NCBI GenBank assembly: GCA_963675745.2
Contig: CAXXWX010000027.1
Span: 177,985 to 241,984, forward strand
DNA from: Phycisphaerae bacterium
GTDB taxonomy: Bacteria; Planctomycetota; Phycisphaerae; UBA1845; Fen-1342
DNA length: 64,000 nucleotides
Direction of reading: 5' to 3'
Shown: piece after piece, positions 37,325-62,727 of the stretch
How positions within the stretch are numbered: the stretch's first letter is position 1
Layout: each line of letters starts with the position of its first letter
Position numbers and translations under genes: made by a program
The notes under the pieces: generated by a model
What the model was told of the DNA's origin: nothing
Seen by the model: the letters and a program-made list of their open reading frames with translations, nothing else
Database searches by the model: none

Positions 37325-37589
37325 GGGTCCGTGACACAATTCGGCGGGTCGTAGCCAGGGCGTCCAGCAGGGACGCAATGAACGTAGCACAGCACGAAGT
37401 GCTGGGGCAATTGTGGCCACGTGAAAACCGAGTCCCACGGGGACGGCTGAGCTTTCAGTCGTCCCTGCGGGACTTGGCGGCTGGGATCGAGACCCAGCAC
37501 TGCGTGCTGGGCTATATTCAGATGCCCCTTCGGGGCGAATAACTCGGAAACCACCGGCGCGGAATTCCCGCCGCAAGTGTCACGGACCC
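37325..37589. mobile_element. 265-bp MITE-like element with a 9-bp TSD
   Basis: Ends GGGTCCGTGACACAATTCGGCGG and (reverse complement) GGGTCCGTGACACTTGCGGCGG; direct repeat GGCCCCTCA at 37316-37324 and 37590-37598. Confidence 0.9.
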
Positions 37590-37611: not shown

Positions 37612-38922
37612 CAGGGCGATCGCATTCTCAGGTTTTCGGTTTTGGGTCGTGGATCAGGAGGCTGAGGAGGTAGTCGTGGTTCCAGCCGGCGAGTAGGCGT
37701 CGGGCGCGGATGCTGCGGGCTTTGGGTGGTCCGGCTTTGAGCAGGTTCAGGGCGATCCGGCTCAGACGCGAGAAGTTTTCGGCTGCGTAGCCGCTGCGGA
37801 TCCGTCGCTGGTCCTCGCCGAAGATCACGTCGAGCCGCCAATGCAGCCGATTCTCGACGCCCCAGTGCCCGCGGACGCGTTCGAGCATGCGGGCAGCGTC
37901 GCACTTTTCGATGCTGCTGATGTAGTAACGCCGGTCGGTCTCGACCTGCTCGCCGATCCGCCGCGTGGCCTCGACGCAGGCAAAGCTGCTGAGGTTTTGC
38001 CACTGCGCCCCAGCCGGCAGCCAGCTGACATCGGTGGTCATCCAACAGCGCCGCGTCTCGATCCGCCCGTGCCCCTTGTCATGCTCCTGCGTATAGTCGT
38101 GTGCGACGGCGTGGGCGTCTTTCCGGCGACACTCGTCGAAGAGCAGCTCCAGTTCTTTCTGCAAGTGCGGATGATTGCCCTTGACCTGGAGCACGTAATC
38201 GGCTCCACAAGAGATGGCCTTCTCGGCAATCGCCTTCTGGCAGCCCATTGCGTCGGTGGTGATCACGGCGCCGTCCAGGTCCAGCAACTCCAGCAGCTTT
38301 GGAATAGCGGTGATCTCGTTGCTCTTGGCGTCGGTTACGATCTGTCCGAGAACCGTTTGGTTGCTCGCGCACCAGGCGCTGACCATGTGCAACGCAGATT
38401 TCTTCGCCGCCGTGTCGAAGCTGCGGCGGATCGTCTTGCCGTCGATGGCGACCAGCCGGCCGACCTTCGTCCGCGACAGGTGGCGTACCCAGGCGAGGAA
38501 GCAACGCTCGAAGGCGTCGGGGTCGAGCCGCGCGAAGACGCGACCGAAGGTGTCGTGCGAAGGGATGCCGTGCGGCAGACGCAGGAAGGTGGCAAACCAC
38601 TTCTGCTTGCCGCGGCCGAAAAGTTCGACATCCTCCCAACCCTCGGCGCCGCAGATCACGGCGCAGATGGCGATGACGAGGATGTCCAGCAACTCGTGCC
38701 GGCGACCCTGGTTGGAACGCGGATCTTCCATATCACTGAAAAAGCGCAGGATGCCACGCGGGGCGTTGACGTCCATGCCAAAGCTCCTTCTCGAAGGGAC
38801 CGCTGATGTCCCTGCGTGGCCAACGCAGAACGATGATAACCTGCTTACCCCCAACCGCGCGCAAGCGCAACCCGTACATACACCGAACATCCATTATTTA
38901 CCACGAGAATGCGATCGCCCTG
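37612..38922 (-). mobile_element. ISAs1-family insertion sequence (1311 bp)
   Basis: Perfect 18-bp TIR CAGGGCGATCGCATTCTC at both ends, enclosing the transposase. Confidence 0.9.
37628..38776 (-). CDS. ISAs1-family DDE transposase
   Basis: GAAGGAG RBS; DPR..GRRHEL; IPSHDTF; AIDGKT; KSNEITAIP; DAMGCQ; KGHGRIETR; RGHWGVENRLHW.LD. Confidence 0.95.
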   Translation of the reverse strand: MDVNAPRGILRFFSDMEDPRSNQGRRHELLDILVIAICAVICGAEGWEDVELFGRGKQKWFATFLRLPHGIPSHDTFGRVFARLDPDAFERCFLAWVRHLSRTKVGRLVAIDGKTIRRSFDTAAKKSALHMVSAWCASNQTVLGQIVTDAKSNEITAIPKLLELLDLDGAVITTDAMGCQKAIAEKAISCGADYVLQVKGNHPHLQKELELLFDECRRKDAHAVAHDYTQEHDKGHGRIETRRCWMTTDVSWLPAGAQWQNLSSFACVEATRRIGEQVETDRRYYISSIEKCDAARMLERVRGHWGVENRLHWRLDVIFGEDQRRIRSGYAAENFSRLSRIALNLLKAGPPKARSIRARRLLAGWNHDYLLSLLIHDPKPKT

Positions 38923-42462: not shown

Positions 42463-42906
42463 TCAATGATCTTCGGGGCGGCGTTTGCGGCAGTAGACGA
42501 CTGGGAACTCCTCGTAGCCCAGCCGGCGACACAACTCGCGCGAGGCGTCGTTGTGTTCTTCGACCAGCGCCGAGACTATGTGAACGCCCTGTGCAAAGAG
42601 CGCGCTTTCCGCCGCTTCGCTCAGACGCCGGGCAATGCCGCGCCGGCGATAGTCGGGATGCACGGCCAGGCGATTGAGCCAGCCCTTGCGCCGCTCATGC
42701 GTACCCAGGAGCACACCGACCACGTTTCCCGCGTGTTCGGCCACCAGGTAGCTGTCCCCAAACAACTCCAGTTGCCAGCGGATGGCCTCGCGTGAATCGC
42801 GACCGTGCGGGCGTGGTGTCAGACCGCCCGTCTGCCACAGGTCAAGCACCGCCGAGTAATCTTCGAGGGTCATCGAGCGAATAGTGATATCCGAACTGCC
42901 GTGCAT
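42463..42906 (-). CDS. GNAT family N-acetyltransferase
   Basis: ITIRSMTLEDY, KGWLNRLAVHPDYRRRGIA, N..S....RRLGY. Confidence 0.9.
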   Translation of the reverse strand: MHGSSDITIRSMTLEDYSAVLDLWQTGGLTPRPHGRDSREAIRWQLELFGDSYLVAEHAGNVVGVLLGTHERRKGWLNRLAVHPDYRRRGIARRLSEAAESALFAQGVHIVSALVEEHNDASRELCRRLGYEEFPVVYCRKRRPEDH

Positions 42907-43014
42907 CGCGCAAGTTGTCTCCTGCATGGGCCGCGCCGTTCGCCGTGCGCGGCCCGTGCAGGATACCCTTGCGCTGACGGATGTCGAGTCAGCCCGGTGA
43001 TGCTCGAAATTGCG

Positions 43015-43662
43015 GGGTGCGTGACACTTGCGGCGGGACGTTGGCAGCGGTGGTCCGGTGAGGCTTGCCCCAGAGGGGCATGGGGCCGGTGCCACGGGTG
43101 CAGCGCAGCTTAACCCGTGAGCACGGTCTGCTCAGCCGCGACTCTTCGCCCTGAAGGGGCGCAGGCGCATGGCCACGGGTGGAGCGCAGCGCAACCCGTG
43201 GATAGGATGCGGGCTGACATGTCATTCCGCCCCGCAGGGGCGGGGGAGGCGCGCAGGCCGGGGACCTTCACGCGATTGCTCTATCACGTGGCCTTCAGCA
43301 CCAAGCACCGCGCCGACCTCATCGCCACGGAGCTGCAACCACGCCTGTACGAGCACGTCGCAGTTCGAGATCGTGCGGCGATATATCCAAGTTCAGGCGG
43401 CGCATCATGGTCGACGAGGATTCGTGGAGGAGCCGAAGGCGTTGCTGGACGCACACGGGATCGAGCACGACGCGCGATACCTGGAGGGCTGAGCGCATCT
43501 TCCGCCGCCCCTGCGGGGCGGAGAGCTTGTGGTGGCGGACCGTGTCCACGGGTTCCGCTGCGCTCCACCCGTGGCTACGCGCCCACGCTCCTCCGGAGCG
43601 AAACGCTCGTGCCCGGGCCGCTGGCACGGATGACCACACGCCGCCGATTCTGTCACGCACAC
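43015..43662 (+). mobile_element. 648-bp non-autonomous element (copy 1) with REP-like hairpins and a tnpA remnant
   Basis: TIR-like ends GGGTGCGTGACACTTGCGGCGG and (reverse complement) GTGTGCGTGACAGAATCGGCGG; 9-bp TSD GAAATTGCG at 43006-43014 and 43663-43671; near-identical to 61941-62588. Confidence 0.92.
43258..43492 (+). pseudogene. Internally deleted IS200/RAYT-like Y1 transposase remnant
   Basis: PGTFTRLLYHVAFSTKHR..I..ELQPRLYE is joined out of frame to VRRYIQVQAAHH..F.EE..ALLDAHGIEHDARYL; the central HUH segment is absent. Confidence 0.8.
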
Positions 43663-43713
43663 GAAATTGCGCCGCAGCGCAAGAATTGCGCCACGTAGTG
43701 CCCGGCGGCGCTG

Positions 43714-44340
43714 CTATTTACGTGCAGCGCTGCGTTGGTGGTTGATGTCCTTCAGCTCGATGATCAGCAACGTGACGGAGTCTGGACTCTGCGGGTTGAG
43801 CCACTGCACGACGCTCGTATTCGTGCGCATGCGCAGGAGTGACTCGGTGCTGATCTGGCGGTCACGGTGATTGAACTCGAGCCCGAGGCGTAGAGTGGCG
43901 CTCTTCTGCGTGACGTCGGTCGGCCAGACGATCAAGCGCCCGGCGCGGCCACGATCGCCGAGCAGGAGTTTGCCGGGCCCACCCTCGAAGACCGTCGTCT
44001 GAGGCGCCTTGGCCATGGCGCTCTGTCGTTGTGGATTCGTCATGTTGACCAGTGCGCCGATCTGCCGACTGGTGACGACGACCGCGTCAGAGCTGTTCAC
44101 GTTGAGCAGATCGAGCACCGCCCTGCCTTCGGCGCGCTCGAAGTTGAGCACGCGGGCTGCGACGGTCACGGCGGCCCGGTCCTGGTTCATTGGTGTCTTG
44201 GGGCGTGTATCGACATTGGCCGCCAGCGCCGGCTTCTGTCTAGCCTGGTGCTGCCTGGTGGGCGCCGGGCCGGCGGTGCGCGGATCGGTGGTGGCGCAGC
44301 CAATCAATGGCAAGAGCAACAGCACTATGTAAACTCGCAT
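43714..44340 (-). CDS. Hypothetical lipoprotein
   Basis: AAGGAGG RBS; MRVYIVLLLLPLIGC lipobox. Confidence 0.7.
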   Translation of the reverse strand: MRVYIVLLLLPLIGCATTDPRTAGPAPTRQHQARQKPALAANVDTRPKTPMNQDRAAVTVAARVLNFERAEGRAVLDLLNVNSSDAVVVTSRQIGALVNMTNPQRQSAMAKAPQTTVFEGGPGKLLLGDRGRAGRLIVWPTDVTQKSATLRLGLEFNHRDRQISTESLLRMRTNTSVVQWLNPQSPDSVTLLIIELKDINHQRSAARK

Positions 44341-56656: not shown

Positions 56657-56729
56657 TGGAGCCGACCGGGCTCGAACCGGCAACCTCCGCGTTGCAAACG
56701 CGGCGCTCTCCCAGTTGAGCTACGGCCCC
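56657..56729 (-). tRNA. tRNA-Ala(TGC), CCA not encoded
   Basis: GGGGCCGTAGCTCAACTGGGAGAGCGCCGCGTT-TGC-AACGCGGAGGTTGCCGGTTCGAGCCCGGTCGGCTCCA. Confidence 0.97.
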
Positions 56730-56902
56730 GATCTTCTTCGTGGCCAGGACACGCCTAGCCGCAACTGCGGGGGCCTCACCCGCCGCCGCCTCGCAGTATG
56801 CCAGACACTGCGATGATCAGAAACACGCCGATCCCCAGCAACATCAGCAGATCAGCCATGTTCCCATCACTCCGGCGGCCGGTACAACCGCGAGCAGCCG
56901 AA

Positions 56903-56976
56903 TGGGCCCGCGAGGATTCGAACCTCGGACCTCGTCCTTATCAGGGACGCGCTCTAACCAACTGAGCTACGAGCCC
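56903..56976 (-). tRNA. tRNA-Ile(GAT), CCA not encoded
   Basis: GGGCTCGTAGCTCAGTTGGTTAGAGCGCGTCCCT-GAT-AAGGACGAGGTCCGAGGTTCGAATCCTCGCGGGCCCA. Confidence 0.97.
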
Positions 56977-61885: not shown

Positions 61886-61940
61886 GCGGCGCCGCACGCC
61901 GCGTCCGGACCGCCACGCTTGCGCGGCGGCACGACCTCCC

Positions 61941-62588
61941 GTGTGCGTGACAGAATCGGCGGCGTGTGGTCATCCGTGCCAGCGGCCCGGGCACGAGCGT
62001 TTCGCTCCGGAGGAGCGTGGGCGCGTAGCCACGGGTGGAGCGCAGCGGAACCCGTGGACACGGTCCGCCACCACAAGCTCTCCGCCCCGCAGGGGCGGCG
62101 GAAGATGCGCTCAGCCCCCCAGGTATCGCGCGTCGTGCTCGATCCCGTGTGCGTCCAGCAACGCCTTCGGCTCCTCCACGAATCCTCGTCGACCATGATG
62201 CGCCGCCTGAACTTGGATATATCGCCGCACGATCCCGAACTGCGACGTGCTCGTACAGGCGTGGTTGCAGCTCCGTGGCGATGAGGTCGGCGCGGTGCTT
62301 GGTGCTGAAGGCCACGTGATAGAGCAATCGCGTGAAGGTCCCCGGCCTGTGCGCCTCCCCCGCCCCTGCGGGGCGGAATGACATGTCAACCCGCATCCTA
62401 TCCACGGGTTGCGCTGCGCTGCACCCGTGGCCATGCGCCTGCGCCCCTTCAGGGCGAAGAGTCGCGGCTGAGCAGACCGTGCTCACGGGTTAAGCTGCGC
62501 TGCACCCGTGGCACCGGCCCCATGCCCCTCTGGGGCAAGCCTCACCGGACCACCGCTGCCAACGTCCCGCCGCAAGTGTCACGCACCC
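61941..62588 (-). mobile_element. 648-bp non-autonomous element (copy 2, inverted)
   Basis: Reverse complement of 43015-43662 with about five substitutions seen; 9-bp TSD CGACCTCCC at 61932-61940 and 62589-62597. Confidence 0.92.
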
Positions 62589-62727
62589 CGACCTCCCCCC
62601 TCCAGGTGCGAGGCGCCGCGATATCGCTTATAATTGCTGGAGTGCCCTATCCCGTGTCGCCGGCCTGAAGAGTTGGTGAGCGGGATAGGGCACGCCCCCA
62701 ATGCGGGCTTTTGCAAGGGTACGCTCG

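Follow-up and report, generated by a model that had tools for sequence, protein, structure and literature searches.

Foreign DNA carried between the ends of a DDE transposon is a familiar arrangement. The mobile insertion cassettes of IS231 are non-autonomous elements of this kind, and the Pack-MULEs of plants, cargo carriers of the Mutator superfamily, generate a 9-bp TSD and prefer the 5' ends of genes. Prokaryotic insertion sequences of the ISKra4 group (p-MULT 4) have IRs of 18-39 bp, DRs of 8-9 bp, a DDE transposase with a C/D(2)H motif and, in some members, two frameshifted ORFs; they insert upstream of sigma-A promoters, on either side, at a constant distance that leaves 13-17 bp between the IR junction and the -35 box when counted on the flank, and the circle intermediates of the superfamily have IR spacers of 6-10 bp (PMC3942029). 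The same paper names Pack-MULEs, and the term MITE does not occur in its main text. TIMEs, which are likewise non-autonomous, combine DDE transposon ends with foreign DNA inside (PMC4133298).

The spread of REP/REPIN repeats and Y1 genes, and the origin of new families of them, are usually treated as the business of a closed HUH system. In REPtrons and REPIN-RAYT systems, and in TnpA-Y1 subclass 1.2, a Y1 gene lies between inverted REP-like hairpins of which doublets are dispersed (PMC6006769, PMC3116915). Subclass 1.2, with Y---Q--HH as its signature, generally lacks terminal structures and is known mostly from Cyanobacteria and Bacteroidetes (PMC6006769), and RAYTs are described as single-copy genes, mostly vertically inherited. 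In TIRtrons (TIRYT), inverted repeats on both sides of the Y1 gene replace the REPs and are ascribed to the Y1 system (PMC3733652).

A 648-bp element in the genome of a Phycisphaerae bacterium brings such parts together. It is, with high probability, a non-autonomous transposon (a MITE or mobile cassette) with ISKra4-like ends and a REP-tnpA-REP cargo, its transposase being supplied in trans; it has multiple dispersed copies and no transposase of its own. Alignment shows the ends and the 9-bp TSD to be shared with an autonomous 1.5-kb IS found in the same order, and the cargo to be a module of an unrelated Y1/HUH system whose tnpA, judged by its reading frame, is dead here and intact in a related genus. 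Each part is known (ISKra4-family IS, cargo MITEs, REP-flanked Y1 genes, TIRtrons), and the identity of the element is well supported; neither the combination nor the 27-bp promoter spacing described below was found in print in a mainly open-access literature (including PMC6006769, PMC3337134, PMC10969869 and PMC3116915). The element differs from REPtrons in that DDE ends, accompanied by a TSD, enclose the module, from TIRtrons in that the REPs are retained and the TIRs are those of a DDE IS, and from other cargo MITEs and Pack-MULEs in that the cargo is strongly biased to REP/Y1 modules, recurs across an order and has apparently been exchanged at REP homology. This recurrence raises the interest of the case.

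The window, the whole stretch of 64,000 nucleotides that was analysed, lies on contig CAXXWX010000027.1 (C27) of assembly GCA_963675745.2, which is metagenome-assembled, 5.2 Mb in size, 91% complete and 6% contaminated. Proteins clustering with the tnpA of a same-family relative carry the label Phycisphaerae, in keeping with the class of the host. As the first-pass annotation had reported, the element occurs twice in the window, at 43015-43662 (+) and once on the opposite strand (Table 1), with five substitutions between the copies; the imperfect TIRs (22 bp) and the perfect 9-bp TSD belonging to each copy (GAAATTGCG and CGACCTCCC, mutually different) were likewise confirmed.

Table 1. Features of the element and its neighbourhood, in window coordinates
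Feature	Position	Strand	Remarks
TSD left, copy 1	43006..43014	+	9 bp, same as 43663-43671
Left TIR, ISKra4-like IS end	43015..43036	+	motif also ends the autonomous 1518-bp IS of G058; the element's first 25 bases also form the left terminus of a G024 element that encodes a transposase
Left shell and first REP unit	43037..43166	+	hairpins 43067-43079 and 43148-43160; palindrome 43091-43120; element positions 1-152 share 79% identity with the 320-bp REP-doublet MITE of G077
Second REP unit, upstream arm of tnpA module	43148..43241	+	palindrome 43172-43201; hairpin 43229-43241; 82% identity with the intact TIR-bounded G077 cassette, 81% with the TIR-less C26 tnpA locus
Y1 tnpA remnant	43255..43492	+	start codon lost; out-of-frame deletion of ~215 nt at 43351-43352; stop retained
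Third REP unit, inverted	43507..43599	-	hairpins 43507-43519 and 43587-43599; GTAG-footed palindrome 43546-43575; inner part matches tnpA cassette, outer part 320-bp MITE
Right shell	43600..43640	+	element positions 532-646 share 89% identity with the G077 320-bp MITE
Right TIR	43641..43662	-	
TSD right, copy 1	43663..43671	+	9 bp
Predicted sigma-70 promoter of GNAT gene	42960..42987	-	sole promoter-like site in 42800-43800
Second 648-bp copy	61941..62588	-	TSD 61932-61940 and 62589-62597; upstream of gyrA
Third TIR element, MITE	37325..37589	+	265 bp; doublet of a different REP family; 9-bp TSD GGCCCCTCA

A genome-wide blastn search found six copies rather than two (C27 twice, C7, C19, C15 and C6). 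The C15 copy is 729 bp long, one REP unit being doubled, and the C6 copy 530 bp, its tnpA remnant having been deleted further; the four copies of 648 bp differ at 3-11 positions. A perfect TSD of 8 or 9 bp flanks four of the six, and the lack of a clean TSD on C7 and C19 may mean that a neighbouring end was targeted. On C19 (395074-395998) the copy abuts a 270-bp MITE with a 7-bp spacer between the TIRs, which resembles the 6-10-bp IR-IR junction of the ISKra4/p-MULT superfamily (PMC3942029); on C7 (90900-91828) the copy adjoins a 270-bp MITE, with about 20 bp between. Logan contigs from two runs of one sample, which may be the source sample of the assembly, are consistent with the structure of copy 1: unique flank contigs extend 25 and 29 bases into it (bridging threshold 31 bases), and the contig of the remnant has a depth of 36 against 6-7 in the flanks, about fivefold, depth here not being copy number. 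Shorter joints within the element were left out, as other REP loci can produce them. No joint across the element, as expected of an empty site, was found in the contigs of the two runs, from which rare variants are dropped; in a search of five close genomes for empty sites, the flanks in congeners are absent or too diverged, and intergenic DNA is not alignable. Nor was a circle seen in either data set.

The same TIR bounds about twenty further elements of the genome, 102-272 bp in length, which carry a second palindrome family or its deletion products, and the idea that REP hairpins have thereby gained a second route of spread is strengthened by this abundance of TIR-bounded REP elements. In a hand-compiled list of 26 paired elements, 15 have a TSD within one mismatch. 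Counting by hand as TIR-associated any REP cluster with a TIR-like site (at most three mismatches) within 230 bp, we find 7 of 16 clusters for the first REP family, 24 of 30 for the second and 2 of 14 for the third. An exact 8-9-bp direct repeat was found at the borders of none of 11 TIR-less REP modules, which may simply be older. Twelve unpaired TIR-like sites were read inward and none led into a transposase, several being decayed MITEs or chance matches in genes. Across the order, the TIR pattern is present in 70 of 201 genomes and its reversed control gave no match; a slightly stricter pattern gave none in 160 genomes from the rest of the phylum. A metagenome scan with the right-end motif returned two loci, both one-ended and without intact tnpA.

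The search for an autonomous IS with these TIRs succeeded in a relative and failed in the assembly itself. In the genome G058, an IS of 1517-1519 bp has the same TIRs and, at all six loci fetched, perfect 9-bp TSDs; its two ORFs overlap at a T5C5 run. When fused in frame, its transposase aligns to positions 7-421 of the 422 of ISKra4 model NF033572 with 204.8 bits (cut-off 205), the next family reaching 37 bits, and the DDE triad and C/D(2)H motif are recognisable by eye in the translation (IGMDG, MGDAG, DYYH, VTES). The ends therefore belong to an ISKra4-like IS (prokaryotic Mutator, p-MULT 4) and not, as the first-pass annotation had suggested, to one of the IS256 or IS4 type. IRs, an 8-9-bp DR, the DDE motif, the frameshift and insertion upstream of promoters are all shared with ISKra4/p-MULT 4 (PMC3942029), from which the window element differs in having no transposase; its TIR core was not found at any element end in Table S1 of that paper.

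Homologs of the transposase occur in 23 of the 201 genomes, a TIR-like site being present at 16 of 20 fetched loci, and the cognate transposase is found, broken off at contig ends, in G077 and G024. Beyond the TIR, the left ends of the IS and the left shells of the MITEs show a weak likeness by eye. No ISKra4-like transposase was found in the present, 91%-complete assembly, where it may be unassembled or lost; a blastn search with the G058 IS gave short matches only, confined at TIR elements to the terminal 27-28 bases. The core of the claim that the element is mobilised in trans is thus upheld by the autonomous IS, but the word 'now' in that claim goes beyond what the assembly contains. A DDE transposase acting in trans, now or recently, would move the element, probably by copy-out/paste-in. 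The genome's one IS256, on C16, was tried as a partner and rejected, its 27-bp IRs being unrelated.

The T5C5 run is conserved at the nine loci (two of them the same element) where the pattern was found among twelve examined, and one has T4C6; it lies at the overlap of the transposase ORFs (L063:3507-3520 and homologs), where a +1 shift is needed, in contrast to the -1 shift of the ISMich2 group (PMC3942029). In another IS, slippage at a run of this kind is described as dropping one C (PMC5009743), which would produce the +1 shift that the partner transposase requires. T5C5 is a candidate for programmed transcriptional slippage outside the IS family in which it was described.

Both MITEs and autonomous IS lie preferentially about 27 bp upstream of predicted sigma-70 -35 boxes. 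Read outward from the TIR ends, 165 flanks have a peak of the TAnnnT core at positions 50-52 and of TTG at 28-29. In this genome the -10 core stands at flank positions 50-52 at 10 of 46 ends, and in relatives at 29 of 131 MITE ends; for the IS the counts are 4 of 12 (left ends) and 3 of 8 (right ends), other positions having 0-3% (flank classes were assigned by pattern, and a few false ends are included). Per element, 13 of 26 in this genome have the core at this distance on one side. That the spacing is common to MITEs and IS argues for one transposase serving both, which would target DNA about 27 bp upstream of the -35 box. The shorter spacing of the superfamily, 13-17 bp, was seen in 5 of 198 flanks, and, on predicted promoters, this lineage would insert about one helical turn further upstream. 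Copy 1 fits the family spacing exactly, its predicted -35 beginning 27 bp from the TIR, before a gene assigned to GNAT by Pfam. Copy 2 departs from it: the -10 box begins at flank position 41, with about 17 bp to a weak predicted -35 upstream of gyrA. The contrast between 27 bp and the roughly 16 bp of known relatives offers a natural pair for asking how Mutator-like transposases read promoters bound by RNA polymerase, and the wider spacing puts strong hairpins next to predicted promoters of host genes.

Within the TIRs the hairpin units are as first described, with five hairpins of the GCCCC-N3-GGGGC type and three CCACGGG..CCCGTGG palindromes, and the element folds with z = -8.8 (against 20 shuffles). 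At its N-terminus the tnpA remnant keeps about 35 codons and at its C-terminus the Tyr helix (Y---Q--HH), whereas the HUH core is lost, again as claimed; the deletion being out of frame and the start codon gone, no protein is expected from it. Its ancestry was clearer from alignment than from a profile: Pfam alone is weak (Y1_Tnp E=0.14, not significant), but the remnant aligns to a full-length paralog, an intact tnpA on contig C26 of the same genome (tblastn E=1e-18 and 8e-17, two pieces in two frames; 81% and 73% nucleotide identity). This paralog lies between the same hairpins as the cargo of the element and has no TIRs. There are six Y1_Tnp genes in the genome, and two further Y1 genes, on C15 and C1, lie between palindromes of two other families.

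The description of the remnant as IS200/RAYT-like holds for IS200 and not for RAYT proper. Intact tnpA scores 68-74 bits with the IS200 model (cut-off 55) and 27 bits with RAYT model NF047646 (cut-off 80), and the intact paralogs (Pfam Y1_Tnp E 1e-27 and 1e-25) have invariant H54-V-H56, Y114, Q118, H121 and H122. By its HUH and Y---Q--HH signature, the source tnpA is assigned to TnpA-Y1 subclass 1.2, to which it is closer than to RAYT proper. Beside the intact gene, at C26:449700-449990, there is a second REP doublet that holds only the last tnpA codons, a TIR-less example of the same decay of tnpA as in the element.

An intact close homolog of this tnpA, with REP arms, is found inside these very TIRs in G077, which represents another genus of the same family. 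Two copies are complete (757 and 839 bp; one mismatch in the 9-bp TSD), whereas another two have a left TIR and run into contig ends; the four are 96-99% identical, a multiplicity that sets them apart from single-copy RAYTs. The same genome has two complete copies of a 320-bp TIR-REP-doublet MITE and a truncated ISKra4-like IS. In G008 a similar tnpA inside TIRs has a different deletion and no clear TSD. In G049 degenerate TIRs enclose a Y1 gene that has class-3-like motifs and is accompanied by other REPs; its cassette shares ends with the common 218-bp MITE of that genome. For the Y1 gene such enclosure is the exception, and for MITEs it is common: a TIR pair encloses tnpA at 1 of 30 family loci (that of G077 itself) and at none of 80 loci of distant homologs, and the closest homologs (in this genome, G024 and G221) have no TIRs. 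Since tnpA is normally without TIRs and the autonomous IS occurs in relatives, the earlier suggestion that a REP/tnpA module was captured between the ends of an unrelated DDE IS is sustained. At L207:576-800 (G081) a TIR is immediately followed by a fragment belonging to another Y1 class, with no second TIR nearby.

The element is a mosaic. Its positions 1-152 and 532-646 follow the 320-bp MITE, and positions 129-338 and 337-582 follow the intact G077 cassette (82%), with the switches between partners falling in 20-35 bp of shared REP sequence, inside hairpins. Comparison of spacers makes the first REP unit a downstream-type arm and the 320-bp MITE a tnpA module minus its gene, in opposite orientation. 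Switches inside REP hairpins suggest that cargo was loaded by REP-guided recombination. The simplest history that we can infer from these alignments has two rounds: capture and deletion would have produced a REP-doublet MITE; a second module would then have taken the place of this MITE's centre through exchange between homologous REPs; tnpA would have been killed by the loss of 215 nt at a 2-nt microhomology; and the gutted element would have spread. The tnpA was probably captured intact and gutted afterwards, decay proceeding, we suppose, by microhomology deletions after entry; rather less certainly, the cargo may have entered a TIR shell that already had a REP doublet by recombination at the shared hairpins. 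Repeated cycles of capture, deletion and amplification would yield TIR-bounded REP doublets, and doublets of this type do form the majority of the loci that one REP family has in this genome. With 79-89% identity and a place in another genus, the G077 elements are cousins and not parents, so that this order of events is provisional.

An alternative that shares the chimera and its movement by the DDE enzyme, and differs at the loading step only, is that a Y1 (HUH) enzyme loads REP modules, by insertion or exchange, into single-stranded, hairpin-forming TIR shells. Cargo starts and ends at the hairpins of REP modules, not in arbitrary host DNA, and near-empty shells with a TSD exist, two minimal elements of 48 and 59 bp (L028:1501 and L053:1501, minus strand) being nearly just two TIRs. 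Among 33 TSD-validated short elements of relatives, a subset of the listed TIR sites, 22 have cargo that matches the surroundings of Y1 genes, compared with 2 of 30 flank controls, in a search of 69 Y1 loci in which the counts are non-independent and some matches are TIR elements situated inside the Y1 loci themselves; the other 11 have no match. These 33 elements form 20 cargo families, 15 of them strongly structured (z < -3) against 1 of 18 flanks, and 5 not; cargo is thus not REP-like throughout. Since the switches lie in shared sequence of 20-35 bp, host recombination or template switching would suffice without a Y1 enzyme, and we regard loading by Y1 as possible but somewhat doubtful.

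That the element is instead the relic of a composite transposon, in which a REP-tnpA locus lay between two IS copies whose bodies were later deleted, we consider unlikely. TIMEs are known to carry along the DNA that lies between them in such a manner (PMC4133298), and deletion derivatives of the IS with these ends do occur, but blastn with the G058 IS detects no transposase DNA left in the 648-bp element, two precise deletions would be needed each time in many independent cases, and the mosaic points to exchange of the centre.

It is more improbable still that the TIRs belong to an autonomous Y1 element whose own enzyme spreads the unit, the likeness to DDE ends being coincidence. Y1 genes flanked by TIRs have been described (PMC3733652), the assembly has intact Y1 genes and no cognate DDE gene that we could find, and several G077 copies hold an intact tnpA. 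Against this, the same ends bound a true DDE IS, with equal promoter spacing and a TSD of equal length; the Y1 classes and REP families found between such ends are unrelated, and the nearest relatives of the gene do without them; the TIRYT consensus GGGGWSAS is absent from the ends, and neither 'TSD' nor 'target site' occurs in the main text of PMC3733652. The general statement that Y1 enzymes make no TIRs, though true of this tnpA as normally found, was too strong given the TIRYT/TIRtron loci on record, where the repeats are others. In this genome Y1 genes at C24:43.7 kb, C28:1.8 kb and C15:67.2 kb have short inverted repeats like those of TIRYT loci, in part as tandem arrays, which are unrelated to the ISKra4-like ends.

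Finally, an artefact of repeat resolution is scarcely credible, for although the assembly is metagenomic with its share of contamination and hairpin repeats are hard to assemble, TSDs and copies differ, independent contigs agree with copy 1, and homologous TSD-bearing elements occur in other genera.

On the preferred reading, a non-autonomous transposon with ISKra4-like ends and a REP-tnpA-REP cargo, REP copies and a multi-copy Y1 gene inside DDE ends imply that a DDE vehicle can amplify, and possibly transfer, REP systems. The scale is indicated by the family with 24 of its 30 clusters inside DDE ends and by an intact Y1 gene that is multi-copy there. A wider proposal, which is plausible although we hold it only tentatively, is that the ISKra4-like IS is a prokaryotic Pack-MULE specialised on REP/Y1 modules across one order of Phycisphaerae: unrelated Y1 classes would be loaded repeatedly by REP-guided exchange (possibly Y1-catalysed), immobile single-copy loci would become transposable and transferable, and REP hairpins would be delivered one helical turn further upstream of sigma-70 promoters. 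For repeat-finding tools there is a caution in that some 'REPINs' are MITEs.

Three further observations concern the surroundings. A complete ISAs1-family IS with perfect 16-bp IRs lies at window positions 37612-38922, 22 bp from the third MITE; it has three full copies in the genome (99.6-100% identity), and it was rejected as a partner on account of its own, unrelated IRs. The stretches C1:~297.5-298.2 kb and C14:1-880 hold a near-identical coding sequence, one at a contig end, which is either a duplication or an assembly overlap. At 56657-56976 of the window, tRNA-Ala stands beside tRNA-Ile in an ORF-poor stretch that is probably the spacer of an rRNA operon.
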